DNA of 64,000 nt from Deltaproteobacteria bacterium (GTDB lineage Bacteria; Desulfobacterota; DSM-4660; Desulfatiglandales; HGW-15). Below, in pieces: positions 1 to 13,731 of this stretch. The position numbers were made by a program, and so were the translations under genes. The DNA lies in NCBI GenBank assembly GCA_016930795.1, contig JAFGFY010000004.1, forward strand, positions 16,421-80,420. Direction: 5' to 3'. Each line of letters starts with the position of its first letter. Positions within the stretch are counted from its first letter, which is position 1. The notes under the pieces were generated by a model, which was not told the origin of the DNA, searched no databases, and was given only the letters and a program-made list of their open reading frames with translations.

Positions 1-113
1 TCCATGTTGACAACCATGATCCTGTAAGGGATAGAATCTAGGATAAGTTGTGTATGGTTCTTGTCTTTTTTTCGAGAATCCGTTCCCTCTATTCCTAATT
101 TCGTCTTTTCCAT
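1..113 (-). CDS. 5' part of a gene running off the window start; probable PAS-domain sensor N-terminus
   Basis: Not in ORF track. ATG at 113 gives MEKTKLGIEGTDSRKKDKNHTQLILDSIPYRIMVVNM with no stop to the window edge; 'ILDSIPxxIMVV' resembles the start of a PAS fold. Confidence 0.45.
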   Translation of the reverse strand, partial: MEKTKLGIEGTDSRKKDKNHTQLILDSIPYRIMVVNM

Positions 114-236
114 CTGGGCTGCAACCGTCCAGCAGCTAAACCGCGAGGCGCGAAGAATCGACGAATGGCCAAAGAAGCTCGGTTTCCGCCGGCTGGCGAT
201 ATTAAAGCTGATGATAAGCCTCCTGCTTCCACCTCC

Positions 237-494
237 TTACAACGTTTCCTTATCTAACCGCGAAACAAGCTTTTGTTCAAGGTCCCTGATAATGTCCTCA
301 AGACGAGGAGTGACCTGGATAGGCCCCGAATTGTTCCATCCCTTAACCAGAGCTTCCTCTTTTTTCTCCTTAAACACCTCAATGCTGGAAGCCATGGTCT
401 TCCACAAAAACAGCTTTTGGAGAATATGCCGCTCAGGGGCAGTCAAATCGGTCTCCGTATCATATGTTTTTCCGTCTTTGGTGGTTATGATCAC
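237..494 (-). CDS. Small hypothetical protein
   Basis: ORF 237..518; GTG at 494 gives MIITTKDGKTYDTETDLTAPERHILQKLF; globular-looking composition, same strand as the upstream operon. Confidence 0.6.
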   Translation of the reverse strand: MIITTKDGKTYDTETDLTAPERHILQKLFLWKTMASSIEVFKEKKEEALVKGWNNSGPIQVTPRLEDIIRDLEQKLVSRLDKETL

Positions 495-600
495 AATGAA
501 AAAGCAATAAAGTATCAAGTGTGAAAAAACTGGCGTGATATCTTAAGGGACAACTGCTGAAGAATTCAAGAAAAAAAGCCTTCTGTCAAGGATGGTGTTA

Positions 601-1533
601 TCAAACCTTGGGCCTGGGAAGGAGACCGGCTCTCTCTGCGATCTCCGGAACCTTGTGTTCCCATTCAATGGCCATGAGATGGACACCAGCTACGCCTTCC
701 ATCTCTTTGAATTCTTCAATCTGCTCGAGCGCGAATTTGATGCCTTCTTCGGCTGTTTTCCCTTTTCCCGCTCCTCTCAATCTATTGATCAGAGATTCGG
801 GCACATCCATTCCAGGGACCGCTTTGGCCATATACTGGGCCATACCGACGCTCTTCATGGGGGTGACTCCAGCCAGGATATAGCATTTCTCGTGGAGACC
901 CATATCGACCGCCTTTTTCATAAAATCCCTGAAGAGATCCATATTATAAATGCATTGGGTCTGAATGAAATCCGCCCCCGAGGCAATTTTCTTTGCGAGT
1001 CGGTATACCCGGAATTCAGTGGGATCTGCAAATGGATTAGAGGCAGCCCCTATAAAGAGCCTGGGCGCGACATCAAGCTCCTCCTCATTCAAGAATTTGC
1101 CCTCGTCCCGCATCTTTTTGGCTAAGGCAATGAGCTGCATGGAGTCTATGTCAAAGACGTTCTTGGCCTGGGGGTGGTTCCCGAAACGCTGGTGATCGCC
1201 GGAAAGACAGAGCATGTTTCGGATACCCACGGCATAGGCGCCCAGGATATCACTCTGTATGGCCAAACGGTTCCGATCCCGGCAGACCATCTGAAAATTG
1301 GGCTCAATCCCTTCTTGTATCAATATCGCGGAAGCGGCCCAGCTGGACATTCGAACCACTGCTGTCTGGTTATCGGTGATATTAACCGCATCGACCATCC
1401 CTTTCAGGTGGGCAATCTTTTCCTTGAGATGATCTATATTCGCACCCTTTGGGGGACCGCATTCGCCGGTAAAGGCAAAGTGCCCGGCACTGAGGACCTT
1501 TTCAAGATTGCTTCCAGATTTCAGATCGTTCAT
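601..1533 (-). CDS. metF: Methylenetetrahydrofolate reductase (MetF)
   Basis: MTHFR motifs TGECGPP, VNITDNQTA, CRDRNRLAIQSD, LSGDH, GADFIQTQ; ATGA overlap with metV. Confidence 0.93.
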   Translation of the reverse strand: MNDLKSGSNLEKVLSAGHFAFTGECGPPKGANIDHLKEKIAHLKGMVDAVNITDNQTAVVRMSSWAASAILIQEGIEPNFQMVCRDRNRLAIQSDILGAYAVGIRNMLCLSGDHQRFGNHPQAKNVFDIDSMQLIALAKKMRDEGKFLNEEELDVAPRLFIGAASNPFADPTEFRVYRLAKKIASGADFIQTQCIYNMDLFRDFMKKAVDMGLHEKCYILAGVTPMKSVGMAQYMAKAVPGMDVPESLINRLRGAGKGKTAEEGIKFALEQIEEFKEMEGVAGVHLMAIEWEHKVPEIAERAGLLPRPKV

Positions 1534-2198
1534 TCTACCAGTCCCTCCTTAACACTCTTTCTGGGCCCGCCGTCCCTTGAGGTCTGCCAATCTTTAGCTG
1601 GTGTTATCCGGAGTAGATCCTCCAGACGGCCCTGTTCCATTTTCTTTCTCACAATCATATCCCATACGCAGTCCACTTCCTTGGAGATCTCACATTTTCC
1701 CTTGGACGAACCGCCACAAGGCCCATTGAGGAGGCTTTTTGAACAACGAGCAATGGGGCATAAGCCGCCGGTCAGGTGGAGGATGCAGTCACCGCACATG
1801 AGACATCGCTCAGCAAAGAGACCCGGCCTTTCAACGACGCCGATGAAAGTGGTATTGAGTCCGGGCAGAATGATCTTCTTCGGCCATTTCTCGGCGGTAA
1901 ACTGGACCCCGGCCCCACAGGCGATAGAGAGGACGGCATCGGCCCATTCGATCTGTTCGTTTGCGGAATCAAAGAATTCGTGTTCACACTGCCGTTCGAT
2001 TCCCCTGTTCTTGATCTCCATCTCTAGGCCTTCCTGTTTGGCCTTCATCCTTAACATGGAGGCCAGGATCTCTGCTTCCTTATTCCCTCCTTCGTGGCAG
2101 ATAGCCACGCAGGTATTGCATCCGAAGATCAAGACCTTCTTATATTCCTTGATCATGTCCCAGATGACTTCAAACGGTTTTTGTTTACCGACAATCAT
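1530..2198 (-). CDS. metV: MetV, Cys-rich partner subunit of MTHFR
   Basis: GCNTCVAICHEGG, ERQCE, ACGAG, CLMCGDC, CPIARCSKSLLNGPCGG; directly upstream of metF. Confidence 0.88.
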   Translation of the reverse strand: MIVGKQKPFEVIWDMIKEYKKVLIFGCNTCVAICHEGGNKEAEILASMLRMKAKQEGLEMEIKNRGIERQCEHEFFDSANEQIEWADAVLSIACGAGVQFTAEKWPKKIILPGLNTTFIGVVERPGLFAERCLMCGDCILHLTGGLCPIARCSKSLLNGPCGGSSKGKCEISKEVDCVWDMIVRKKMEQGRLEDLLRITPAKDWQTSRDGGPRKSVKEGLVE

Positions 2199-2204
2199 CT
2201 TGAT

Positions 2205-2708
2205 TTACTCCTTTCCAGAGTGCTTGGATTCCGCAAGCCGAATAGGGGAGGGGCCCAGCTTTTTGATCTTCTCTGTAAACTCGGTACAGATTTCTGCCCA
2301 TCTAGGTCCCATGGCTGCGGAAAGGTTATACATCTCAAGCCGTTCAGGATCGATGTCAACCTTTACTAATAGAGTCTTAAGATAGTCAATCGTCTTTCTG
2401 GCGTTTGTATTTCCTTCCAGGAAATGACACTGTCCGGGCAGTCACCCGGCAGCAAATACGCCGTCAATGCCTTTCTCGAACGCCCGAAGAATATAAATAT
2501 GGTCCAGCTTTCCCGTGCAAGGGAGCCTGATGATTTTCACGTTTGTAGGATAGGAGAGCCGCATGACGCCGGATAGGTCCGCGGCCGCAAAGGCGCAATA
2601 GTGGCAGGCAAAGGCCAGGATGTTGGGCGACCAGTCCGAAGGGATATCGTGAGTCTTTTCCACGGAGGAGACACCCTCTTGTGCCACGGCTGAAGCTTCT
2701 TCTGTCAT
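2205..2708 (-). CDS. mvhD: MvhD/FlxD-type [2Fe-2S] subunit, selenoprotein (UGA at codon 89 read as Sec), 167 aa
   Basis: AFACHYCA, IRLPCTGK, DGVFAAG-TGA(2444..2442)-LPGQCHFLEGN; frame stays open to TAA at 2207..2205 with the typical MvhD C-terminus (PERLEMYNLSAAMGPRWAE); SECIS-like hairpin follows the UGA. Confidence 0.92.
2406..2429 (-). promoter_or_regulatory. Bacterial SECIS-like stem-loop
   Basis: UGU-C-AUUUCC-[UGGAA]-GGAAAU-ACA starts 12 nt after the UGA; 9-bp stem with G at loop position 2. Confidence 0.7.
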
Positions 2709-2724
2709 ATTCTATCTCTTCTCC

Positions 2725-5700
2725 CTACATATTCATTCCATCTGCGAGCGTATCTATCATGGCCAATATTTGCTCATCTTTAAAATTGTTGACCTGAAAT
2801 GCCTTGGCCGGACAGATACTCGCACAGATTCCGCATCCCATGCATTTGACCTCATTGTGGCTCACCTTCCCCTCCTCGTCGATATAGGGGGAACCATAGG
2901 GACAAAGCCTGAAGCACGTGAGACATGACATACACATATCCCGATTGTGCTTGGAGATGATCCCGGAAACGGCCAGTTTGTCTTGAGACAGGATGACACC
3001 GGCGCGGCCGGCAGCGGCCATGGCCTGGGAAATGGTCTCATCCAGGTTTTTAGGGGCATGCGCCAGCCCACATAGGAAGATGCCCTCGGAGGGGAAGTCT
3101 ACGGGGCGAAGCTTGACATGAGCCTCCAACAGGTAGCCCTCCGGATTGCATGTCAGTTTGTAAATTTTGCCGACCTCTTCTGTTGTCGGGTGAGGTCGGA
3201 GGCCTGTGGAAAGCACCAGCCAATCCGCTTCAAACTCGACATCTCGGCTGAGCATGTAATCGAAGGCCTTGATTCGAAGTTTGTCTTCTGAGACCTCCAC
3301 CTGGGGTTTCCTCTCGGGAATGTAGTTTACAAAGATCACACCCAAATCGCGTGCCTTAGAGTAGTAGGTTTCCCTGAGACCGTATGTCCTGATGTCACGG
3401 TAGATGATGACGACCTGCGCATCAGAGGACTTTTCCTTGATGGCGATAGCGTTCTTTATGGCGTCTTGACAGCAAATACGAGAGCAGTAATTGTCAGGTT
3501 CCTCTCTGGAACCCACACACTGGATCATGACAAATTTTTCACCCGAGCGGACACCATGGCCAACTGCAAGCCTCTTTTCCAGGTTACGCTGAGTGATCAC
3601 CCTATCGTTTTCCCCGTAAAGGTACTCCGTGGGCTCATATTCGATGCCGCCAGTGGCCACGATAATGGCCCCGTGTTCAAACGAGGTCCCGTCTGTCAGG
3701 GTCGTCTTGAAGTTGCCCACAAAACCGTTGGTGGATTTGACCTCAGTGCCCGTGTGAAGGATGATCCGCGGGTGGGCCTGAATCTCATCGATTTTGGCTT
3801 TCAAAAATTCCTGTACATCGCTTTTGTCCAGTGTATAAAAGAGATTCCGAGCCAGACCGCCCAGTTCAGTCTCCCTTTCCACTATATGGACATCAAACCC
3901 CTGATCACCCAATGAAAGCGCGGCGATAATGCCGGCCACACCGCCCCCGATGACCATGGCCGCGGGAATAACGCTTACTGAATCGGTGGAGACCGGCTCA
4001 AGCAGCCTTGATTTGGCCAAAGTCATCTTGACAATTCTGATGGCCTTTTCTGTGGCATCTTCATTTTGTCCCATGTGGCACCAGGAGCATTGCTCTCGGA
4101 TGTCGGCAAGCTCGAACAAATATTTGTTCAGGCCCGCATCACGTATGGTATCCTGAAAAAGGGGTTCATGGGTGCGCGGCGTGCATGAGGCCACCACGAC
4201 CCTGTTCAGTTCTTTTTCCCTGACGAGCGCTTTGATCTTATCCTGACTATCCTGGGCGCAGGCGTAGATCACGTTCTCAGCGTGAACCACACCCTGTTCA
4301 CCCTTCACGGATTCGACCACTTGTTCCACGTCTACGGTCTGACTGATGTTGATGCCGCAATGGCATACGAAAACACCGATTCTGGCTTCTTGTCCGTTGA
4401 TGTCCGTTTCCGGCGGCAGTTCCTTGGTTACGATTTCACTGCCACGGGCCTCGCTGAGCAGTGCCATGGTCCGCCCGGCTACGGCGCTTCCCTGCATCAC
4501 AGTCTCGGGTATGTCCTTGGGGGACTGGAATATACCGCTGACAAATACGCCGTCTCGGGAGGTATCAATCGGTCGGAATTGTGTGGTTTTTGGGAAGCGG
4601 TGCTCATTGAGTTCGATATCAAAGGTCTTGGCCAGATCTTTAACATCCGAATGAGGCTGAAAGCCTATGGACAGAACGACCAGGTCAAATGTTTCATCCA
4701 CTAACGTCCCGTCCTCCTTGGCGTAACGCAATATCAGATTGCCTGTGCCGGGTTCTTCTCGGACCGCAGAGACCATGGCCCGCTGGTATTTGACGCCGTA
4801 ATCGTTTTTGGCGCGATCTACATACTTGTCAAAATCCTTGCCAAAGGCGCGAAGCTCCATATAAAAGATAGTGGGAGCAATATGGTCATCATGTTCTCTG
4901 GCAATGATGGCCTGCTTGGTGGCGTACATGCAGCAGACCGAGGAGCACCAGGGGTTGGCGTTGTGCCGGTCTCGGGATCCCACGCATTGTATCCACGCGA
5001 TTCTTTCGGGATGCTTGCCGTCCCCGGGACGCTTCACTTCTCCCCGGTATGGGCCTGAGGCAGAAAGGATGCGCTCAAACTGGATGGACGTTACCACATT
5101 GGGCCAACGACCAAATCCCAATTCCTGTCGGACCTTGGCGTCATAACGGTCAAGACCGGGGGAGAGAATGATGGCGCCAACCTTGAGCTCGATCTCCTCT
5201 TCCTGCTGATCAAAGTCAATGGCACCTGCTTCGCACAGCTTTTCGCAGGCCCTGCATTTACCTTTTTGGAAGAATATACAATTGTCTTTGTCGATGACAC
5301 GGGTGCTGGGAACGGCCTGAGGAAAGAGTGAGTAAATGGCCTTACGTTCAATAAGGCCCTGCTCGTATCCGCTGATGACCTTTTTAGGACATTTCTGCTC
5401 GCACAGCCCGCAACCCGTGCATTTCGCTGAGTCCACGTAACGCGGATGTTGCACTACTCTGACCGTGAAGTCCCCCGGTTTCCCCTCAACTGATAGAACC
5501 TCGGCAAAGGTATGGATATCAATGTTTAGGTGCCTCCCAACCTCCACCATCTTGGGTGATATCATACACATGGCGCAGTCACCGGTGGGAAAGGTCTTGT
5601 CCAGCATAACCATGGTCCCACCGATGCTTGAGTCTTTCTGGACCATGTGTACCTTAAAGCCGGCTTCAGCAAGATCGAGAGCTGACTGCATCCCGCCCAC

Positions 5701-5766
5701 ACCGCCGCCTGCGATCAGGACCGACCCTCTTACTCTTTTATCGCTTGAGGAGGAACTATTACTCAT
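2725..5766 (-). CDS. hdrA: Large HdrA-family FAD/Fe-S protein with two flavin-binding halves (1013 aa)
   Basis: Two GGGxxG motifs (GGGVGG, GGGVAG), LDKTFPTGDCAMC, two IQCVGSR...CSxxCC motifs, VFVCHCG, inserted and C-terminal ferredoxin CxxCxxCxxxC motifs. Confidence 0.92.
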   Translation of the reverse strand: MSNSSSSSDKRVRGSVLIAGGGVGGMQSALDLAEAGFKVHMVQKDSSIGGTMVMLDKTFPTGDCAMCMISPKMVEVGRHLNIDIHTFAEVLSVEGKPGDFTVRVVQHPRYVDSAKCTGCGLCEQKCPKKVISGYEQGLIERKAIYSLFPQAVPSTRVIDKDNCIFFQKGKCRACEKLCEAGAIDFDQQEEEIELKVGAIILSPGLDRYDAKVRQELGFGRWPNVVTSIQFERILSASGPYRGEVKRPGDGKHPERIAWIQCVGSRDRHNANPWCSSVCCMYATKQAIIAREHDDHIAPTIFYMELRAFGKDFDKYVDRAKNDYGVKYQRAMVSAVREEPGTGNLILRYAKEDGTLVDETFDLVVLSIGFQPHSDVKDLAKTFDIELNEHRFPKTTQFRPIDTSRDGVFVSGIFQSPKDIPETVMQGSAVAGRTMALLSEARGSEIVTKELPPETDINGQEARIGVFVCHCGINISQTVDVEQVVESVKGEQGVVHAENVIYACAQDSQDKIKALVREKELNRVVVASCTPRTHEPLFQDTIRDAGLNKYLFELADIREQCSWCHMGQNEDATEKAIRIVKMTLAKSRLLEPVSTDSVSVIPAAMVIGGGVAGIIAALSLGDQGFDVHIVERETELGGLARNLFYTLDKSDVQEFLKAKIDEIQAHPRIILHTGTEVKSTNGFVGNFKTTLTDGTSFEHGAIIVATGGIEYEPTEYLYGENDRVITQRNLEKRLAVGHGVRSGEKFVMIQCVGSREEPDNYCSRICCQDAIKNAIAIKEKSSDAQVVIIYRDIRTYGLRETYYSKARDLGVIFVNYIPERKPQVEVSEDKLRIKAFDYMLSRDVEFEADWLVLSTGLRPHPTTEEVGKIYKLTCNPEGYLLEAHVKLRPVDFPSEGIFLCGLAHAPKNLDETISQAMAAAGRAGVILSQDKLAVSGIISKHNRDMCMSCLTCFRLCPYGSPYIDEEGKVSHNEVKCMGCGICASICPAKAFQVNNFKDEQILAMIDTLADGMNM

Positions 5767-6638
5767 ATTAGGTTCAACTCCTTCAGGAGGCCAATTGTAT
5801 CCACAAAATGCCTGTCGATTTGTAGCTCTTCAGGGGATTTATCCATGGCCACTCCAATCAACTCGGTGATGAAGTAGACCGGCATGTCCTGATCGATGTC
5901 GTATTTTTGTTTCATTTGTTCCTGATATGCATCAAGGTTAAGCTGGCACATGGGGCAAGTGGTGACAAAACAGTTGGCTCCTCTTGCAACGGCGTCCTTG
6001 AAGATCTTCGACATGAGAAGGAGCGCTGTATCGATGTCGTTAACGGTCGCGGATGCCCCACAGCAGTCGGTCTTGTAGCTCCAGTCTATGGGATTCGCGC
6101 CCAGGGCCTTGAGTACGATCTCCATGCCCTGCGGATTTTCTACATCATCGGGCACGGGCACATCATATGGGAACCTGGTCTGCAGACATCCATAGTAACA
6201 TGCAGGTTCTAAACCCTTGAGCTGTTTGGTCGTCTTTTCGGCTAGCTCACCGGATTCAGCCTTCGGCACCAACACCTCAAGGATACTCATAATTCTAATG
6301 TTGCCTTTTACCTTCTTGGTCAACTCCGCATTGATCTCATCCTTCAGTCTATGGTTAGACGCAAGCCTATGTTGCGCGACCAGCATCCGGCTGTAGCAGG
6401 CCGAGCAGGGGATCACCAATTCGGAGAGACCGCTGTTGTCCGCAATGCCCAGGTTCCGTGCGGGCATGGCAACGGATAGGAAGTCGTCGGTCTTGCTGGC
6501 AGAGGTGGCACCGCAGCAATTCCAGTCTTCGAGTTCGTTCAGGTTTATTCCCATTTCCCCTAGGACCAACTTGGTCTGTATGTCATAGATCTGACTCGAT
6601 GCGTGTAATGTGCATCCAGGATAATAGGCTATTTCCAT
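5763..6638 (-). CDS. hdrB: HdrB-family CCG-domain subunit
   Basis: YYPGC, WNCCGA, PCSAC, YYGC, DCCGA, TCPMC; ATGA overlap with hdrA. Confidence 0.92.
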   Translation of the reverse strand: MEIAYYPGCTLHASSQIYDIQTKLVLGEMGINLNELEDWNCCGATSASKTDDFLSVAMPARNLGIADNSGLSELVIPCSACYSRMLVAQHRLASNHRLKDEINAELTKKVKGNIRIMSILEVLVPKAESGELAEKTTKQLKGLEPACYYGCLQTRFPYDVPVPDDVENPQGMEIVLKALGANPIDWSYKTDCCGASATVNDIDTALLLMSKIFKDAVARGANCFVTTCPMCQLNLDAYQEQMKQKYDIDQDMPVYFITELIGVAMDKSPEELQIDRHFVDTIGLLKELNLI

Positions 6639-6656
6639 TATGTTCCCTCACTCACT

Positions 6657-7277
6657 TCAGACTCCATCAGCGGCTCGCTTTTTTGCTTTCTTGAGAAGGC
6701 GCTTGAGATCTGAAAGGTGTTTGACCTTTTGGATCCCGAAATGCATGCGCTTTTTCTTGGTCATACGCAGGCCGAGTTTCGCCTGGAGCATGGTCTCTTT
6801 GAATATTTCTCTGAACTTGAAGTGTATGAGGTCGTGGAAGGCGTTCTTTATTTCATAGAGACCCATGAATTCGATTTCATTGAGCCTTCCCAAGTGGTTG
6901 GCTGCGGTGCAGAAGGATTTGTGGAAGGCAGCGACCTTTGGAAGGAGTGGATCCAGATGTTCCTCTTTGGACATATGTTTGAGGGTCTCGATGATCTTTG
7001 CAGTCTGTATTTCGTTTGGGCAGCGGGTGCCGCAGGTATAGCATGACACGCACTTCCAGACTAGTTTATTGCTGAGGGCCTGTTCCCGGTCGCCAAGCAG
7101 TATCATTCGGATCAAACGGTCAGGCGTGACATAGCCGGTTTCTTCCCCCACAGGACATCCTGCGGCACATCGTCGGCATTGATAACAGGCGGTGATGTTC
7201 TGTTCCGAACGCGACATGACCTCATGGATAAATGCTTGTGTGTTTTCGTGTTCGTAATCTAAGACAGGAAGCGCCAT
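6657..7277 (-). CDS. hdrC: HdrC-family 2x[4Fe-4S] subunit
   Basis: CYQCRRCAAGCP and CVSCYTCGTRCP; first gene of the hdrCBA run. Confidence 0.9.
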   Translation of the reverse strand: MALPVLDYEHENTQAFIHEVMSRSEQNITACYQCRRCAAGCPVGEETGYVTPDRLIRMILLGDREQALSNKLVWKCVSCYTCGTRCPNEIQTAKIIETLKHMSKEEHLDPLLPKVAAFHKSFCTAANHLGRLNEIEFMGLYEIKNAFHDLIHFKFREIFKETMLQAKLGLRMTKKKRMHFGIQKVKHLSDLKRLLKKAKKRAADGV

Positions 7278-7487
7278 TTAAGTATTCCTTGGTCCCTTAT
7301 GATTCTCCAAGCCTAATTCACGAAATCTTTCACGATCGCCCTTTTTTACATTTCGAACCATGAGATGCCTATCTCATATTCGGTTTATTTCTATTTCAGG
7401 ATGTAGTGGGGTATAGATCCGAAGAGGGGCCATCTCTAGCTCGATCTGGGGATTTCCATCAGCCTGAAAGGGGGCGGAGATTCGAAT

Positions 7488-7505
7488 TTGTGAAATAATT
7501 AACAT
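7488..7505. promoter_or_regulatory. Rex-like operator
   Basis: TTGTGAA-ATAA-TTAACAT versus Rex consensus TTGTGAA-N4-TTCACAA (2 mismatches); overlaps the predicted -10/+1 of the hdrC promoter. Confidence 0.55.
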
Positions 7506-7529
7506 GCCATTTCAGAGGCCATGTGTCAA
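7501..7529 (-). promoter_or_regulatory. Predicted sigma70 promoter of hdrCBA-mvhD-metVF
   Basis: Minus strand TTGACA (7529..7524), 17-nt spacer ending TGG, CATGTT (7506..7501). Confidence 0.45.
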
Positions 7530-7663
7530 GGGGAAAATTCTTCCGGGCATGATCTGCATTGGATTGCTGGTTTGTCACGTAACATTCTGGAATCTAATAT
7601 CATATTCCGTTTAGGGCTCAAAGGGAAGGACCCCAAGAGTTTTTTTTGGACAAGATTTTGTTG

Positions 7664-7693
7664 TTGACCTCCTGCGCTAGCGTCTGGTACAAA
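7664..7693 (+). promoter_or_regulatory. Predicted sigma70 promoter of the membrane Hdr genes
   Basis: TTGACC (7664..7669), 18-nt spacer, TGn-extended TACAAA (7688..7693). Confidence 0.4.
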
Positions 7694-7721
7694 AGTCAAC
7701 CAAACCCTCCAGCTTGCGGAG

Positions 7722-9485
7722 ATGAGGCCCATTATGTTTTTCAGCATCTGCCTGTATACTGCTCTGAGCATATTCCTTCTCGGCCTTTTTTGGAAAATTT
7801 CCACTTGGTTCCGTTATAGTGTCGGACCCGGATCCCGAGAGATCAAAACCTCAAAAAGGCTTTTTGCAGCCATTAAAGGAAGCATTCTTACCATATTAAG
7901 CCCAAAAGTCCTGACTCTTCTAAAAGTCTTTGTTTTGGATGTCCTTTTTCAGAGAAGGATATTTATAGAAAGTCGTCTCCGGTGGCTCATGCACATGTGC
8001 ATATACGGCGGATTCATGCTGTTGCTCCTCATGCATGCCCTTGAACATTTCATTACCATCACTCTCTTTCCGGACTATGCTTCTACACTCAATCCTTTTC
8101 TCTTTCTGAGGACCCTCTTTGGTCTCATTGTCATGCTTGGATTGGGGATCTCTTTTTACAGGCGCCACATCCTGAAGATCCCTCGTCTCATCAATAATGC
8201 CATGGATCATTACATGGTGATTATCCTCGCTGTTATCATGATCTCCGGTTTTCTGCTGGAGGGGACTAAGATTGTATCTCACACCAGATATCAAGAGATG
8301 GTGGAAGACTGGTCGGACGTGGATGATGAAGAATCGTTTGAGGCATTGGAAAGCTATTGGGTTGAGAAGTTCGGTGTTGTTTCGCCTGATTTAGAGGGGC
8401 CCTTTGATGAAGAGACCCTTGACCTGGGCAAAGAATTGCATGAGACGAATTGTGAGGCCTGTCATTCCAGACCTCAGTGGGCGTTTATAAGCTATGGGGT
8501 CGCGAAGATCGTATCGCCTCTCGCCGTTTCAATGGATAAGGCCGATGTTCACACGATTCTGTGGTCCCTGCATTTCCTGGCCTGTTTTGTAGGCTTGGCT
8601 TATCTTCCTTTCAGCAGGATGTTTCATATTATTGCCGGTCCCCTGAGTCTGCTTGCAAATTCTGTAATGGACAGAAAAAGATCAGACCGCGCCAATATAG
8701 CCACGAGGCAGGTGATGGAAATGGACGCCTGCACGCACTGCGGGGCATGCAGTTTGCATTGTTCTGTGGGTGTCCTATTCGAACAGATGCAGAACGTAAA
8801 CATCCTTCCGTCTGAAAAAATGGCATCCGTAAAAAGATTCACAGCAAATAGGACAGCCAAAGAAGGGGACATAAAGCATATTCAGGAGGGGCTCTATCTG
8901 TGTACCAATTGTTGCAAATGCACCTTGGTCTGCCCGGTTGGCATCAATCTCCAAGATCTGTGGTTCGACATGAGAGAGACCTTTATTCAAGATGGCCATC
9001 CGGAGGTGTTCACCCTTTCTACACTCTCATTCTATCGCGGGTTGAGGAAAGATGAGTTGAATGAAAAGGATTATGAAAAACCCTTGCAGCAGGCCAGCCA
9101 AGCCCTGGCTGAGGAGTGCGGTTTATTTGATTCGGTGGATACGCCCATAGATCTTGGAAGTCTGGACGAGAGTTTTGAGAAGGATCTGCGAACATCAGCT
9201 CAAGGAAGCACCTTTTCCTTTTGTTTTACCTGTACAACCTGTACGAGTGCCTGTCCCGTGGCATTGAATTACGATGACCCCCCGAATGTCCTCGGGCTGA
9301 CTCCTCACCAAATTATGCGCGCCACCGCCATTGGGCTCCCTGATCTTATTTTTCGCTCAAAAATGCTTTGGACCTGCCTGGGTTGTTATCAGTGCCAGGA
9401 GGCCTGTCCTCAAGGGGTTCGTGTCACAGATATCCTTTATGCATTGAAGAATATGGCCATAAGGCGAGTTAAAGAGAAGACATAA
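7722..9485 (+). CDS. Membrane redox protein: NarI/HdrE-like cytochrome b domain + CxxCH loop + two HdrC-like Fe-S domains
   Basis: About five hydrophobic segments with His pairs (WLMHMC...LMHAL; SLHFL...MFHII), NCEACHS, and four CxxCxxCxxxC motifs (CTHCGACSLHC, CTNCCKCTLVC, CFTCTTCTSAC, CLGCYQCQEAC). Confidence 0.8.
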   Translation: MRPIMFFSICLYTALSIFLLGLFWKISTWFRYSVGPGSREIKTSKRLFAAIKGSILTILSPKVLTLLKVFVLDVLFQRRIFIESRLRWLMHMCIYGGFMLLLLMHALEHFITITLFPDYASTLNPFLFLRTLFGLIVMLGLGISFYRRHILKIPRLINNAMDHYMVIILAVIMISGFLLEGTKIVSHTRYQEMVEDWSDVDDEESFEALESYWVEKFGVVSPDLEGPFDEETLDLGKELHETNCEACHSRPQWAFISYGVAKIVSPLAVSMDKADVHTILWSLHFLACFVGLAYLPFSRMFHIIAGPLSLLANSVMDRKRSDRANIATRQVMEMDACTHCGACSLHCSVGVLFEQMQNVNILPSEKMASVKRFTANRTAKEGDIKHIQEGLYLCTNCCKCTLVCPVGINLQDLWFDMRETFIQDGHPEVFTLSTLSFYRGLRKDELNEKDYEKPLQQASQALAEECGLFDSVDTPIDLGSLDESFEKDLRTSAQGSTFSFCFTCTTCTSACPVALNYDDPPNVLGLTPHQIMRATAIGLPDLIFRSKMLWTCLGCYQCQEACPQGVRVTDILYALKNMAIRRVKEKT

Positions 9486-9510
9486 AGCCTTCTAACCGGA
9501 GATTAGTATC

Positions 9511-10413
9511 ATGGATTTTGCCATACAACGTTGCTGTGTAACACCTATGTATCTGAAATCATACGATAGCTCAACGGATGCGGTCCTGAGGGCACTTGGT
9601 ATAGGATTTGTGGACATCAAGGGGTTCAACTGTTGCGGGTACCCTTTGAAGGATATTGACCTAAAGGCCTTCGTTCTCGCTTCGGCAAGAAATCTGTGTC
9701 TGGCTGAAAAAAGCGACCTCAATGTCATGACATTCTGTAACTGCTGTTACGAGAGCCTGAAAGAGGCGAATCATCTCTTAAGAGAGGATGAGTCCATAAA
9801 GAGGGGCATCAATGAGAAATTGATGAAGGAAGACTTGAAGTATGGTGGTTCCACGAAGGTGAGGCATCTGCTGGAGGTACTCTACAATGATGTGGGCTTA
9901 GAGGCCTTAAAAGAAAAAGTGACCATGCCCTTCAAAGGCTTGAAGATCGCAGTACATTATGGCTGCCATATTCTGCGCCCAAGGCAACTGGTCCAATTCG
10001 ATGATCCTGGAACGGCTAAGGTGTTTGATCAACTGGTACAGATTACAGGAGCGGAGATTGTTCCCTGGGAAGCGCAGCTCGACTGCTGCGGGGCCCCCGT
10101 GTGGGGAATAGATGATGATCTTTCCATGGATCTGACTCAGAAAAAGATTAGGGATGCCCGTCAGTCCGGCGCCGATTTTATATGTGTGGCCTGTGCCTAT
10201 TGTCAGCTTCAGTTCGATAGAGTTCAGAGGATGCTTCTTTCCAAGAGAGGAGAAGACAAGGGTCTCCCTTCGATCCTTTTTACACAGCTCCTTGGTTTGA
10301 GCTTAGGCGTAGATTCAAAGGCCCTTGGAATTGACCAAAACGAACTGGATGCGATGGGGATTAAACATTTTCTATCCTCCGAAGAATCCCCCATCCAATT
10401 AAGTGTTGTTTAA
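9511..10413 (+). CDS. hdrB: Second HdrB-family CCG-domain subunit
   Basis: FNCCGYP, FCNCCY, VHYGCH, DCCGAP, ACAYCQLQFD. Confidence 0.88.
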   Translation: MDFAIQRCCVTPMYLKSYDSSTDAVLRALGIGFVDIKGFNCCGYPLKDIDLKAFVLASARNLCLAEKSDLNVMTFCNCCYESLKEANHLLREDESIKRGINEKLMKEDLKYGGSTKVRHLLEVLYNDVGLEALKEKVTMPFKGLKIAVHYGCHILRPRQLVQFDDPGTAKVFDQLVQITGAEIVPWEAQLDCCGAPVWGIDDDLSMDLTQKKIRDARQSGADFICVACAYCQLQFDRVQRMLLSKRGEDKGLPSILFTQLLGLSLGVDSKALGIDQNELDAMGIKHFLSSEESPIQLSVV

Positions 10414-10838
10414 CTTATTGAAATATAAATAAAAAACTTAGCATATGAGTCCGGACCGATTTCGCACCGCTTATGTGCTGCGATTCTTCCGACTCAGAAA
10501 GTTCTAAGGGCTTTTTGTGGACTTTCTTATGTATAGATTTTCACATAAGTGAAAAAGCCTTTCTCGATAGTGACAAGGTTGTTCCACGAATTATTTCCCG
10601 CCCGAGGTCCTGTCTTTTTTTAATATGTTGAAATATAAAGAAAATCAAGTGGCAGGGCGGTTTGGTATTTTTTTTGCAGAATTTTTGTGCTATAATTGTA
10701 TACATAATTTGAGTCTAATCGCTTTTTTTGATGGGCACTTACAGGATGAAGAAACGGATCGAAACCGAGTAAAAGGCGTCTTCTTCATGCCGAATTGCTG
10801 AGCGGATTGAAGATATTCTGACGGAGGATAAGACCAAA

Positions 10839-11237
10839 ATGGATGTCAGCGTTATAATGAAGAAAGACCGCAAGGCCCAACATTATAATATTGACAGTGA
10901 TATCGTCACCATTGGAAGGTCTTCTGAGAATGATATTCAGATTTCTGATAAGTATATTTCCCGTGAGCACCTGAGAATACGGCAGAAGGGCGACAAGTTT
11001 TTCGTAAGAGACTTAGGGAGTGAAAATGGGACGTTTGTTAATGGGATTCAAATACCCTTGGGTATTAATATAGAAGTGGCAAAAGGGACGGCCATTATTA
11101 CCGGTATGAGTGTAATCTTCCTCGGTGAAGGGGATTCCGGGCATGTTTTTGCCTTTCTTGAATCGATTGGTCCCGGCGAGCAGAGCAGGGATGAGACGGG
11201 GACAATCATCCTGAGTGATACCCTCCATCCTGAGTGA
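10839..11237 (+). CDS. Stand-alone FHA-domain protein
   Basis: TIGRS, ISREH, DLGSENGTFVNG FHA motifs; RBS GGAGG upstream. Confidence 0.85.
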   Translation: MDVSVIMKKDRKAQHYNIDSDIVTIGRSSENDIQISDKYISREHLRIRQKGDKFFVRDLGSENGTFVNGIQIPLGINIEVAKGTAIITGMSVIFLGEGDSGHVFAFLESIGPGEQSRDETGTIILSDTLHPE

Positions 11238-11693
11238 TCCAATCCAGTGAGTTTTCCTCGACCAAAAGAGCCTTTCTGATTATCTTCCTTTGACAGCCAT
11301 ATAGTTGACCTGCCTGCATGGCTTTTCTTTCAGAGATTTGCCGACAGAATTTTTGAAAGCCTTTCGAAATTTACTCGAGATACCGGCTCATGGTTCATGA
11401 GATGCCTTTGGAACGAAAATTCTCCTTAATAAAGAGGCCGTTAGGGGGGGTGAAGCTGAAGTTGTACATAAGGATATACTGGAGGTAGGGCGCTAAGTTA
11501 TGCCAAACGTGATCAACATCTTGTGCATTTGTCAGCGTTGATATTCAATATTTGGGTTAATTGGCGACTTTTTGATAAATTGTGATAATAATATTGACAA
11601 TTATGTATATATTGTTGTATTTTAAGTATAACTTATTTGATTGAGACCCTTGCGCCTCTATTATACGGAGCTCAATAGCCCCATGACCATGAT

Positions 11694-12005
11694 TTGAGAA
11701 GTAAGATTCGAGGATTTATGAAAGACAAAGGCGAGTATCACAGTGTGGAATTCTCTGTAGAGGGCCTGCCCGTCGCATATCAGTTCAGGCTTTGGAACAA
11801 CAACTCAAAGGAAATGTCCATTCTTGTTCGTGAGGACTCTGCCATTTTGCCTCGTTTGAAAGTGGGAGACAGATTGAAGATGGAATATTACCCTACTGAT
11901 CCGCGTCGTCCTAAAGTGGGAAGAGAGACAGCTATTACAGAGATCGCGAGGGATAAACAAGGGAAGTATAACGGGCACACTGTCGTGGGTCTTGAGATTC
12001 TATGA
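11694..12005 (+). CDS. Small hypothetical protein, possible degenerate PilZ-like beta-barrel
   Basis: RSKIR (RxxxR) near N-terminus, WNNNSKEM where (D/N)xSxxG would lie, C-terminal VVGLEI; start codon uncertain (TTG 11694 or ATG 11718). Confidence 0.5.
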   Translation: MRSKIRGFMKDKGEYHSVEFSVEGLPVAYQFRLWNNNSKEMSILVREDSAILPRLKVGDRLKMEYYPTDPRRPKVGRETAITEIARDKQGKYNGHTVVGLEIL

Positions 12006-12243
12006 ACCCACCAAGAAAAAACGTCTCTTGCGCATCCAAGTCCTTTTCTCTCTTTTAAAATCCTGCCCTGATTTGATTGCCACTTAGGAAAAACCTTACC
12101 CTATTTCCATACAATGAGTCCGAATAGCTGACAGCAAGCATCGTATGACACTCCTCCTTGACTTTTGTCACTGGAAACATATGATACCGGCAAAATGGCG
12201 GGCCAGTTTCTTCTCTGAGTAATCCAAGGGATAGGGTGAACGG

Positions 12244-12525
12244 GTGCAGACCAAACGTCAGGAGATGATCGGTATCCTATGCGAAGAGGTAATGAGCGCC
12301 AGAGACCTTTCCCAAACCCTGGGGATCCGCGAAAAGGAGGTCTATGAACACCTTCCTCACATTGCGCGTTCATTGATTCCCCAGAGGAAAAAACTTGTTG
12401 TTCTCCCTTTCCGCTGCTTGGAGTGTGGGCACGTGTTTGAGGAGCGAAAGCGTTTTACCCGCCCGGGTCGTTGCCCTTACTGCAAGAAGTCGCATATTGA
12501 GAGGCCGACGTATCGTATTGTTTAA
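12244..12525 (+). CDS. Predicted HTH + Zn-ribbon transcriptional regulator
   Basis: N-terminal HTH-like SARDLSQTLGIREKEVYEHL; CLECG and CPYC zinc knuckles. Confidence 0.75.
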   Translation: MQTKRQEMIGILCEEVMSARDLSQTLGIREKEVYEHLPHIARSLIPQRKKLVVLPFRCLECGHVFEERKRFTRPGRCPYCKKSHIERPTYRIV

Positions 12526-12546
12526 AGGAATGAAGCCATTCCGGTT

Positions 12547-13731
12547 TTGGATGGAGATTTGAGGCGCAAGGTGAATACCAGCGAAGTAACCCGATTAAGT
12601 TACGAGAATAAAAAAATCATACTCATCGGCACAGCCCATGTATCCCGGCAGAGTGCCGAATTGGTGAAAAATATCATAGAAGAGGTAAAACCCGATACGG
12701 TCTGCGTGGAACTATGCCAATCCAGGTATGAAACGATCACGAAAAAGAAAAAATGGCAAGAAACAGACCTTCTAATGGTCATCAGAGAAAAGAAGGCCTT
12801 CTTGCTTCTGTCAAACCTCATGCTCAGCTATTTTCAAAAGAGAATTGGGAAGAAGTTGGGCATAACCCCGGGGGAGGAAATGATGCAGGCCATCGCGTCT
12901 GCCAAGACTGTTGGGGCCGGACTACACTTGGCAGACAGGGATATCCGCATTACCCTGTCCAGGACATGGCACATGATGAGGTTGTGGACAAAGATCAAAC
13001 TGTTGGCCGGGCTTGTGACCTCAGCAGGTGATATCGGTGCAATCCAGGAGGAAGATGTCGAAGAACTGAAGAACAAGGATATGCTGACGTTTTTTCTGTC
13101 GGAGATTGGAGAATCATTGCCGGAAATAAAGCGAACCTTGATCGATGAGAGAGACGAGTATTTGACCTACAAGATCAGGAACGCCCCAGGTGAAAAGGTT
13201 GTGGCCGTAGTCGGGGCAGGACATGTACCGGGTATTCAAACCCATTGGGAGAAACCGATAGATATCAATCAACTGGAGAAGATCCCTCCAAAAGGTAAGC
13301 TCTCTCTTTTCTTCAAGTGGGGAATACCGGTTCTGATCATAGGAATTATTGTCTCGGGCTTTTTCATGGCAGGGTCGACGGCCGGCACCGATATGATCAA
13401 ATGGTGGATCCTGGCCAATGCCGTCCTGGCAGGGCTTGGAGCGGGACTCGCATTGGCTCATCCCTTGACCGTGCTCTCTGCCGTGGTCGCCTCTCCCATC
13501 ACATCCCTTAATCCCATGATTGCGGCGGGCTGGGTCGCGGGTATGGTGGAAGTCTTTCTAGGCAAACCGAAAGTGATGGATTTCGAAAGACTTCCTGAGG
13601 ATATCTCTTCCCTGAAGGGGTTTTGGAGGAACAAGGTTACACGTATTTTGCTTGTGGTGGTGTTTACGAATCTGGGGAGCAGCCTGGGAGCCTTTGTGGC
13701 CATTCCCCTCATGATGAGAGTATTCGGGTAA
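12547..13731 (+). CDS. TraB/GumN (pheromone shutdown TraB-like) family protein
   Basis: LIGTAHVS, VCVELC, LIDERDEY, VVGAGHVPGI plus C-terminal TM segments. Confidence 0.85.
   Translation: MDGDLRRKVNTSEVTRLSYENKKIILIGTAHVSRQSAELVKNIIEEVKPDTVCVELCQSRYETITKKKKWQETDLLMVIREKKAFLLLSNLMLSYFQKRIGKKLGITPGEEMMQAIASAKTVGAGLHLADRDIRITLSRTWHMMRLWTKIKLLAGLVTSAGDIGAIQEEDVEELKNKDMLTFFLSEIGESLPEIKRTLIDERDEYLTYKIRNAPGEKVVAVVGAGHVPGIQTHWEKPIDINQLEKIPPKGKLSLFFKWGIPVLIIGIIVSGFFMAGSTAGTDMIKWWILANAVLAGLGAGLALAHPLTVLSAVVASPITSLNPMIAAGWVAGMVEVFLGKPKVMDFERLPEDISSLKGFWRNKVTRILLVVVFTNLGSSLGAFVAIPLMMRVFG

Follow-up and report, generated by a model that had tools for sequence, protein, structure and literature searches.

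The fate of the electrons of methyl-tetrahydrofolate (methyl-THF) is a question for sulfate reducers and syntrophs that oxidise acetate and, where the reaction runs the other way, for acetogens. At an E0' of about -200 mV, the oxidation of methyl-THF cannot by itself drive the reduction of NAD+ or ferredoxin. The question is raised here by a locus at positions 601-10413 of a 64,000-nucleotide stretch of contig JAFGFY010000004.1 of a Deltaproteobacteria bacterium; this whole stretch is referred to as the window. Eight genes form two divergent units at the locus. The six minus-strand genes, hdrC1-hdrB1-hdrA-mvhD-metV-metF (601-7277), were assigned to a soluble Hdr-linked methylene-tetrahydrofolate reductase (MTHFR), and they face two plus-strand genes for a 587-aa membrane protein and for a second HdrB, HdrB2 (together, the pair). 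Our analysis indicated that some functional coupling of the two modules is probable, and that the pair recurs beside hdrA and mvhD in related genomes. A reading made earlier from the sequence alone (the sequence-only reading) had described a divergent arrangement of hdrCBA-mvhD-metVF and a cytochrome-Fe-S fusion plus hdrB; every one of these parts was found where that reading had placed it, with a spacer of 444 bp. The genomes closest to the window were Desulfobacteria/Desulfobacteraceae metagenome-assembled genomes (MAGs) with about 88% protein identity.

In S. ovata, the Hdr-linked MTHFR was found in association with the membrane, and its membrane-integral partner was not identified (Kremp et al., PMC9430772). 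A quinone-dependent MTHFR was proposed for T. phaeum (Thermacetogenium; PMC6895022), and in 2026 the reaction in Moorella was described as 'not fully understood', with menaquinol postulated as the co-substrate and the subunit left unnamed (PMC13040438). HdrABC lies beside metF in Seep-SRB1g (Murali et al., PMC10553843), and DsrMK(JOP) is a menaquinol-linked DsrC-trisulfide reductase (PMC10861901). Against this background, the family of the 587-aa protein and HdrB2 is a concrete and testable candidate for the membrane link of Hdr-linked MTHFR. The candidate would face the quinone pool and/or cytochrome c, it brings HdrC-like domains together with an HdrB of its own, and in many Desulfobacterota it shares an operon with HdrA-MvhD-MetVF.

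The features of the membrane module were as follows.
7722-9485, plus strand: 587-aa membrane protein, predicted to contain a NarI/HdrE-like five-helix dihaem-b domain, one CxxCH motif and two di-[4Fe-4S] domains, the second of them HdrC-like
8451-8465, plus strand: candidate haem c site C244-E-A-C247-H248, invariant in 26 of 26 homologues
9222-9407, plus strand: HdrC-like dicluster motifs C501-C511 and C552-C562; the Cys are invariant, and the stretch aligns with HdrC from Hdr complexes of known structure
9511-10413, plus strand: hdrB2, 300 aa, the HdrB paralogue of the membrane module, 25 nt downstream of the 587-aa gene

Hydrophobic helices were observed in the 587-aa protein at about residues 4-28, 87-115, 125-146, 159-183 and 276-300. 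The loops at 30-86 and 147-161 were basic (11 and 4 K+R, respectively), and the loop at 184-275 between the fourth and fifth transmembrane helices (TM4 and TM5) was acidic, with 22 D+E versus 6 K+R. The C-terminal half contained four CxxCxxCxxxC motifs, and residues 475-580 aligned with the HdrC 8rvu_c in a PDB sequence search (E 5e-16). This Fe-S half must be cytoplasmic, and the CxxCH loop at 184-275 is therefore predicted to lie on the periplasmic side. In an alignment of 26 homologues with 33-91% identity, H91 and H105 (TM2), H284 and H302 (TM5), C244, C247, H248 and the 16 Fe-S Cys were all invariant, which bore out the earlier haem b and haem c motif reading. The model PF02665 scored 28.3 bits (cut-off, 22.9), matching residues 278-313 (TM5) only. 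The i/i+18 spacing of H284 and H302 is presumably that of NarI helix V. Read in the straightforward way, these motifs point to two haems b and one haem c in the protein, together with four [4Fe-4S] clusters.

The membrane domain appeared to belong to a compact and distinct family, because a phmmer search with residues 1-320 against 1.84 billion representative proteins gave 688 matches, all from its own family and nearly all with the same architecture of about 550-615 aa. In the PDB sequence search, the Fe-S part gave only HdrC/SdhB-type matches and the membrane domain gave none. Against TIGR03290, the HdrC equivalog model, the C-terminal domain scored 69.5 bits (cut-off, 160), and it is thus a homologous domain and not an equivalog. 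An exact-protein look-up returned no record for the 587-aa protein of the window, and no description of it was found in the full-text literature searched, key subscription reviews being outside reach. When a degenerate DNA pattern was searched for cultured carriers, almost only MAGs and no named isolate were among the matches listed. One homologous open reading frame (ORF), in a Myxococcales MAG (L027, 8417-11701; loci are cited by L numbers), was 1094 aa long and may thus be extended at its N-terminus by about 500 aa.

HdrB2 aligned with 5odc_B (E 7e-61). HdrB proteins were assessed by two CCG motifs of the form Cx31-39CCx35-36CxxC, and both were complete in HdrB2 (C9/C41/C42/C76/C79 and C152/C192/C193/C228/C231); their ten Cys were 94-100% conserved over 79 family members. 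HdrB2 is accordingly predicted to hold two non-cubane clusters. Its score against TIGR03288, the model of CoB-CoM heterodisulfide reductase B, was 252 bits (cut-off, 345). As HdrB2 thus represents a paralogous subfamily, its substrate need not be CoM-S-S-CoB, the heterodisulfide of coenzymes M and B. Taken together, the pair appears to be a membrane terminal of the HdrDE/DsrMK/Tmc type, connecting menaquinone and/or a periplasmic cytochrome c to a cytoplasmic disulfide site. The analysis shows the genes, the cofactor motifs, the logic of the topology and the linkage to hdrA-mvhD across the family, whereas we infer the identity of the carrier, the occupancy of the cofactor sites, the direction of flow and the choice between quinone and cytochrome c.

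What, then, stands opposite this terminal? The minus-strand genes were as follows.
6657-7277, minus strand: hdrC1, 206 aa, soluble HdrC with two CxxCxxCxxxC motifs
5763-6638, minus strand: hdrB1, 291 aa, soluble HdrB with two complete CCG motifs; its stop overlaps the hdrA start
2725-5766, minus strand: hdrA, 1013 aa, fused double HdrA flavoprotein, matching 5odc_A in three stretches (E 1.7e-189)
2205-2708, minus strand: mvhD, 167 aa by read-through, with a putative selenocysteine at residue 89 (TGA at 2442-2444)
1530-2198, minus strand: metV, 222 aa with 13 Cys, Fe-S subunit of MetVF-type MTHFR; PF12225 at E 3.2e-35, above the gathering score
601-1533, minus strand: metF, 310 aa, MTHFR catalytic subunit overlapping metV by 4 nt; PF02219 full-length at E 1.7e-39, above the gathering score

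Since the gaps or overlaps between these genes were only -4 to 18 nt, the six were regarded as one operon. The CCG motifs of HdrB1 were C9/C41/C42/C78/C81 and C147(151)/C192/C193/C228/C231, and HdrC1 scored 66 bits against TIGR03290, under the cut-off. HdrA scored 966 bits against the NCBIfam model HdrA2 (cut-off, 1100). In the alignment with 5odc_A, its residues 24-370 corresponded to the TrxR-like domain and the inserted ferredoxin domain, and residues 458-636 together with 832-1004 formed a second, reduced copy. E230 and K283 aligned with E356 and K409 of 5odc_A, so that the Glu/Lys pair used as the signature of a bifurcating flavin (PMC9430772) is present. A six-gene unit, matches to PF02219 and PF12225 and this Glu/Lys pair together characterise type IV MetVF, and all of them were found. 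The soluble module is, as far as sequence goes, a type IV methylene-THF reductase like that of Moorella and Sporomusa, with its catalysis predicted.

The ORF call of mvhD was interrupted by an in-frame TGA, at which the FlpD match ended and after which the domain resumed in the read-through frame. We read this TGA (2442-2444) as a putative selenocysteine codon because its position coincided, in an alignment with the MvhD of PDB 7bkb_F (E 5e-38), with a Cys that serves as a cluster ligand. A hairpin 14 nt downstream was not more stable than shuffled controls (z = -1.3). ORF callers would cut this mvhD to 88 aa. The gene reading made earlier stood in all its parts, with two amendments: mvhD required the TGA read-through to reach 167 aa, and HdrA proved to be a fused double protein.

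The two modules being recognisable, we examined how often they travel together. The synteny set comprised 103 loci from two scans, one genome per species, the second scan contributing the best 80 of 477 matching stretches, and the window proteins were placed on the relatives' loci by tblastn. Frequencies were taken from 39 fully flanked loci (at least 6 kb on either side) with linkage counted within 10 kb, and the family of the 587-aa protein was arranged in a neighbour-joining tree. The 587-aa gene and hdrB2 were practically always adjacent, hdrB2 being detected in 38 of the 39. A tandem hdrA, 45-50% identical to the window HdrA, was near the pair in 23 loci (59%) and mvhD in 22. Less frequent were a Sec-type (putatively selenocysteine-containing) formate dehydrogenase with an FdhB-like protein (11), metV-metF (8) and soluble hdrBC (2). 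Sixteen loci were stand-alone, with none of hdrA, mvhD, metVF or formate dehydrogenase in range, and their neighbours were variable. One stand-alone pair was preceded directly and in the same direction by genes for a metY-like pyridoxal-phosphate enzyme, a metX-like hydrolase and metW (L085, 6832-9900).

Sixteen of all the loci joined the pair to hdrA-mvhD-metV-metF, and they did so in at least five gene orders, which include the following.
Divergent layout of the window: L002
metF'-hdrA-mvhD-metV-metF-(response regulator)-587aa-hdrB2: L009, L010, L015, L017 and L026
587aa-hdrB2-...-hdrA-mvhD-metV-metF: L011 and L028
On opposite strands, with about 5 kb in between: L019 and L021
mvhD-587aa-hdrB2-metV: L054, a Desulfonema MAG (528-4216), the pair being inserted inside the MTHFR operon

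In one clade (L009, 9517-9903; L010, L013 and others), metF and the 587-aa gene are separated by the gene for this response regulator, a single-domain protein. Many loci repeatedly show genes for PAS sensor kinases and sigma-54 activators in the neighbourhood of the pair. The metVF-linked loci occupied at least seven positions in the tree, including the two deepest clades. In most lineages, gene order suggests that the pair is linked directly to HdrA.

The commonest order was 587aa-hdrB2-hdrA-mvhD, with other hdrB and hdrC genes absent nearby. As no other hdrB or hdrC was present at such loci, the pair must supply the HdrBC function there. This bears on the possibility, which we regard as rather unlikely for the window, that the pair docks directly on HdrA-MvhD-MetVF, replacing HdrC1B1 or acting alongside it, to give a membrane-bound type IV MTHFR. 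The flavin of HdrA would then divide the electrons of methyl-THF, one share reaching menaquinone by way of the HdrC-like domain and haem b and the other going to ferredoxin or NAD+. Such docking would account for the co-directional pair and hdrA-mvhD without further hdrB or hdrC at most related loci, for the pair embedded between mvhD and metV in L054 and for the retention of the Glu/Lys signature in HdrA, and it agrees with the quinone-coupled models of PMC9430772 and PMC13040438. The window differs in that its operon has hdrC1 and hdrB1 of its own, hdrB1 being translationally coupled to hdrA. In addition, the fused pseudo-dimeric HdrA probably offers one HdrC site, to judge from the complementary losses in fused HdrA (PMC9012536), and the 587-aa protein of the window lies within a clade of mostly stand-alone pairs.

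Inputs other than MetVF were also observed. Thirteen loci (L018, L020, L036, L041, L042, L049-L051, L053, L057, L060, L067 and L070) contained 587aa-hdrB2-hdrA-mvhD together with an FdhB-like protein and formate dehydrogenase; the molybdopterin formate dehydrogenase of these loci was split by a stop codon, which is probably a selenocysteine codon. In a sub-clade of L052, L074, L078 and L086, 587aa-hdrB2-hdrA-mvhD was followed by Flx/Asr-like genes for two Fe-S proteins (one AsrA/Fer4_22-like) and one FAD/NAD protein (FlxA/AsrB-like), and the whole looks like a membrane-anchored Flx-Hdr-like system. The string closes in L052, L074 and L086 with a genuine dsrC, whose product ends in ...GACKMAxLPKPTGCV with both C-terminal Cys; it spans 363-11207 in L086, and the L078 locus stops before the point at which dsrC would lie. 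The pair thus seems to behave as a membrane-bound substitute for HdrBC, and the inputs with which it is combined, namely MetVF, formate dehydrogenase and Flx, are those known from soluble HdrABC complexes. It may even define a class of membrane-anchored HdrABC, in which HdrA would bifurcate with the menaquinone pool or periplasmic cytochromes and the MetVF, formate dehydrogenase and Flx-NADH inputs would be exchangeable, although we put forward this wider view with considerable reserve.

The layout of the window itself was much less widespread. A reciprocal scan with the window MetV as the query returned 14 loci with hdrC-hdrB-hdrA-mvhD-metV-metF and two more that were truncated, and the pair lay beside the operon in only one of the 14, L104, which is from the same MAG as L002. 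The divergent layout with soluble hdrCB was therefore confined to the window, L001 and L002/L104, and it appears to be a recent arrangement of one genus-level lineage. About 40 further loci had hdrA-mvhD-metVF with neither hdrBC nor the pair within 10 kb. In three genomes with such an orphan hdrA-mvhD-metVF, a stand-alone pair was encoded on another contig (L121/L082, L127/L040+L084 and L120/L003), as would be expected if the pair docked on an HdrA encoded elsewhere.

The other members of the clade of the window 587-aa protein were mostly stand-alone, and its nearest non-conspecific relatives were stand-alone pairs; the pair can hence work without an adjacent HdrA. This leads to another explanation, which we consider improbable, namely that the two units are independent neighbours. 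The pair would then act by itself in sulfate respiration, as an oxidoreductase of the DsrMK/Tmc kind between menaquinol (or cytochrome c) and DsrC, with no specific exchange of electrons with the MTHFR. The stand-alone loci with their variable neighbours, the usual lack of the pair at operons of the window type and the formate dehydrogenase and Flx partners, which make the tie to MetVF non-exclusive, are all in keeping with it. It accords poorly with the head-to-head position beside hdrA-mvhD, which is the companion set of the pair in the majority of loci and improbable by chance, and with an arrangement, a spacer and a shared repeated element that are conserved in three genomes. We estimated the chance of direct adjacency at about 2 in 4,500 genes per genome, and chance does not explain the adjacency because the pair recurs beside hdrA-mvhD across related genomes.

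The spacer contained the following features.
7278-7721, no strand assigned: divergent intergenic region, 444 bp
7371-7387, plus strand: first copy of ATMTCATATTCSGTTTA, a direct repeat of 17 nt, which lies about 100 bp upstream of hdrC1
7597-7613, plus strand: second copy of the repeat, ATMTCATATTCSGTTTA, about 110 bp upstream of the 587-aa gene

It was 89% identical among the window, L001 and L002. The repeat had two exact matches in the 64 kb, both in the spacer (0.72 expected at up to 3 mismatches). Beyond the window it was present only in the closest relative. Its absence from unrelated loci rules it out as a family-wide operator; as a site for a regulator shared by the two units it may be a candidate. 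Upstream of the 587-aa gene, TTGACC and TACAAA separated by 18 nt (7664-7693) are kept in L001 and L002 and are tentatively taken as a putative promoter, and the consensus promoter scan made no call there. Nothing convincing emerged from consensus scans for promoters and terminators, and no sigma-54 site was found in the 7278-7721 spacer. Because an Rfam search over 1-12600 returned nothing credible, a riboswitch is not indicated in that region.

Past metF, in the part of the relative that corresponds to sequence beyond the left edge of the window, L104 (12085-20206) encodes two PAS sensor kinases and then a metF paralogue (metF') and a 1187-aa GltD-HdrA fusion (HdrL-like), a second MTHFR-type cluster that is probably linked to NAD(P)H. 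One could suppose that the pair serves this metF'-hdrL system, or several HdrA systems at once; the presence of metF' and the fusion downstream of metF in L104 would fit, and so would the metF' paralogue that heads the L009-type operons ending in the membrane pair. We nevertheless judge it very unlikely, as the metF'-hdrL cluster is beyond the window, its transcription leads away from the pair, and the distance of about 8 kb between them takes in hdrCBA-mvhD-metVF. To the right of hdrB2, the genes of the window are unrelated: they encode an FHA protein, a TraB-family protein, PFK2 and an M48 protease, and they include a large cluster for polysaccharide or glycan biosynthesis at about 20200-47500, with genes for a sugar transferase, a GNVR chain-length protein, a heparinase II/III-like protein, a flippase, glycosyltransferases and a PMT_2 protein.

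How, then, might the two modules of the window be coupled? As hdrB1 is translationally coupled to hdrA and both HdrB proteins are complete in their motifs, HdrC1B1 is the likelier direct partner of HdrA, and HdrB2 the likelier membrane-side partner of a carrier that both share. For the window, we favour such a relay because hdrC1B1 is coupled to hdrA, the fused HdrA probably has one HdrC site and the clade of the pair works without an adjacent hdrA. In acetyl-CoA oxidation, methyl-THF would be oxidised at MetF, and electrons would pass from MetV through MvhD to the HdrA flavin, which is of the bifurcation type. From there, the branch of high potential, by way of HdrC1 and HdrB1, would reduce a protein disulfide, most likely that of DsrC, and HdrB2 would re-oxidise or exchange this carrier and thereby wire it to the membrane haems. 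The electrons of methyl-THF could in this way gain a high-potential outlet, which would allow a redox loop, and the whole route is equally possible in reverse. The version with DsrC as the carrier is held tentatively, at somewhat less than an even chance. DsrC had also been named in the sequence-only reading, and the dsrC genes that close the strings of the Flx-type sub-clade lend it indirect support.

Several observations weigh against this coupling. For the window it is gene neighbourhood that argues for it, and haem binding by the 587-aa protein was deduced from motifs only. An AlphaFold2 (AF2) monomer of that protein, built from a 22-sequence alignment, was too poor for a structural check (mean predicted local distance difference test score, pLDDT, 57.8; predicted template-modelling score, pTM, 0.33). 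No dsrC was detected in the window region, and a sulfate reducer could consume reduced DsrC directly, in which case the membrane step would not be needed. Thirteen other species have the six-gene operon without an adjoining pair, which indicates that the linkage in the window lineage is recent, and in two of these genomes the pair is on another contig (L105/L035 and L113/L097). The earlier expectation that the pair and metVF would be linked across genomes was accordingly borne out in part. It held for the 16 joined loci, with their several gene orders and tree positions, and for the frequency of hdrA and mvhD beside the pair. It did not hold for the divergent layout, which is restricted to its own lineage, nor for the stand-alone loci, and MetVF turned out to be one of several partners.

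If the wider view of a membrane-anchored HdrABC class is true, the pair would be the sought membrane-integral partner of Hdr-linked methylene-THF reductases and the entry of methyl-THF electrons into respiration in organisms using the reverse Wood-Ljungdahl pathway. The family also suggests a general design in which one fusion protein makes soluble HdrABC-type bifurcating complexes membrane-bound, and formate dehydrogenase and NADH/DsrC-linked modules would be covered by it as well.

Compared with known systems, the soluble module has the same gene set and order as the type IV MTHFR of Moorella thermoacetica and Sporomusa ovata, in which an enlarged double HdrA likewise has one flavin site with the Glu/Lys signature (S. 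ovata, PMC9430772). The acetogen clusters have no transmembrane subunit in or near them, whereas the module of the window is Desulfobacterota-like, has a putative selenocysteine in MvhD and faces a membrane module. A transmembrane protein combined with HdrC and HdrB has been described as 'HdrF' in D. autotrophicum (Strittmatter et al., PMC2702500); encoded beside glpAB/etfAB, it is a different membrane protein by its description and a looser analogue.

Judged from its domains, the pair would act like HdrDE, DsrMK, Tmc or QmoC, yet it could be placed in none of them. With HdrDE of Methanosarcina it has in common a predicted dihaem-b anchor, Fe-S clusters of the HdrC type, a CCG site as in HdrB and, as the presumed partner, a quinone-like membrane carrier. 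HdrDE joins HdrC and HdrB in one protein, HdrD, and leaves HdrE apart, whereas in the window it is the anchor that is joined to two HdrC-like domains, with HdrB as a protein of its own; the pair also has an extra CxxCH, is bacterial and is usually encoded with HdrA-MvhD. HdrDE proper was rejected on this difference in fusion pattern. DsrMK(JOP) resembles the pair in having a NarI-like cytochrome b, predicted in the case of the pair, a cytoplasmic CCG protein and DsrC as the likely substrate. Its haem c is on a separate DsrJ, whereas the predicted haem c of the window is in the membrane subunit and HdrB2 has two full CCG sites, and DsrMK was rejected with a DsrK model score of 26 bits (cut-off, 400).

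QmoABC is, to our knowledge, the only characterised membrane complex with HdrA-like flavoproteins, and QmoC also fuses HdrC-like and HdrE-like parts. The Fe-S part of QmoC is N-terminal, in reverse order, HdrB and CxxCH are lacking, and the partner is adenylylsulfate (APS) reductase; QmoC was rejected because the domain order is reversed and the score was 71.5 bits (cut-off, 300) with the Fe-S part alone matching. TmcABCD and HmcABCDEF follow the plan predicted for the pair, with a haem c on the outer face, a membrane-embedded cytochrome b and a CCG protein on the inner face, leading from periplasmic cytochromes to DsrC. The pair differs from both in having a single predicted haem c within the b-type subunit and in its association with HdrA-MvhD, and TmcBC and HmcEF were rejected at 21-23 bits for the TmcB and HmcF models (cut-offs, 735 and 750, respectively). 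The modular logic is that of FlxABCD-HdrABC and of the methanogen formate dehydrogenase-HdrABC-MvhD complex, in which an input module likewise feeds HdrA through an MvhD-type subunit. Unlike the family of the window, those two systems are soluble and use an ordinary HdrC and HdrB.

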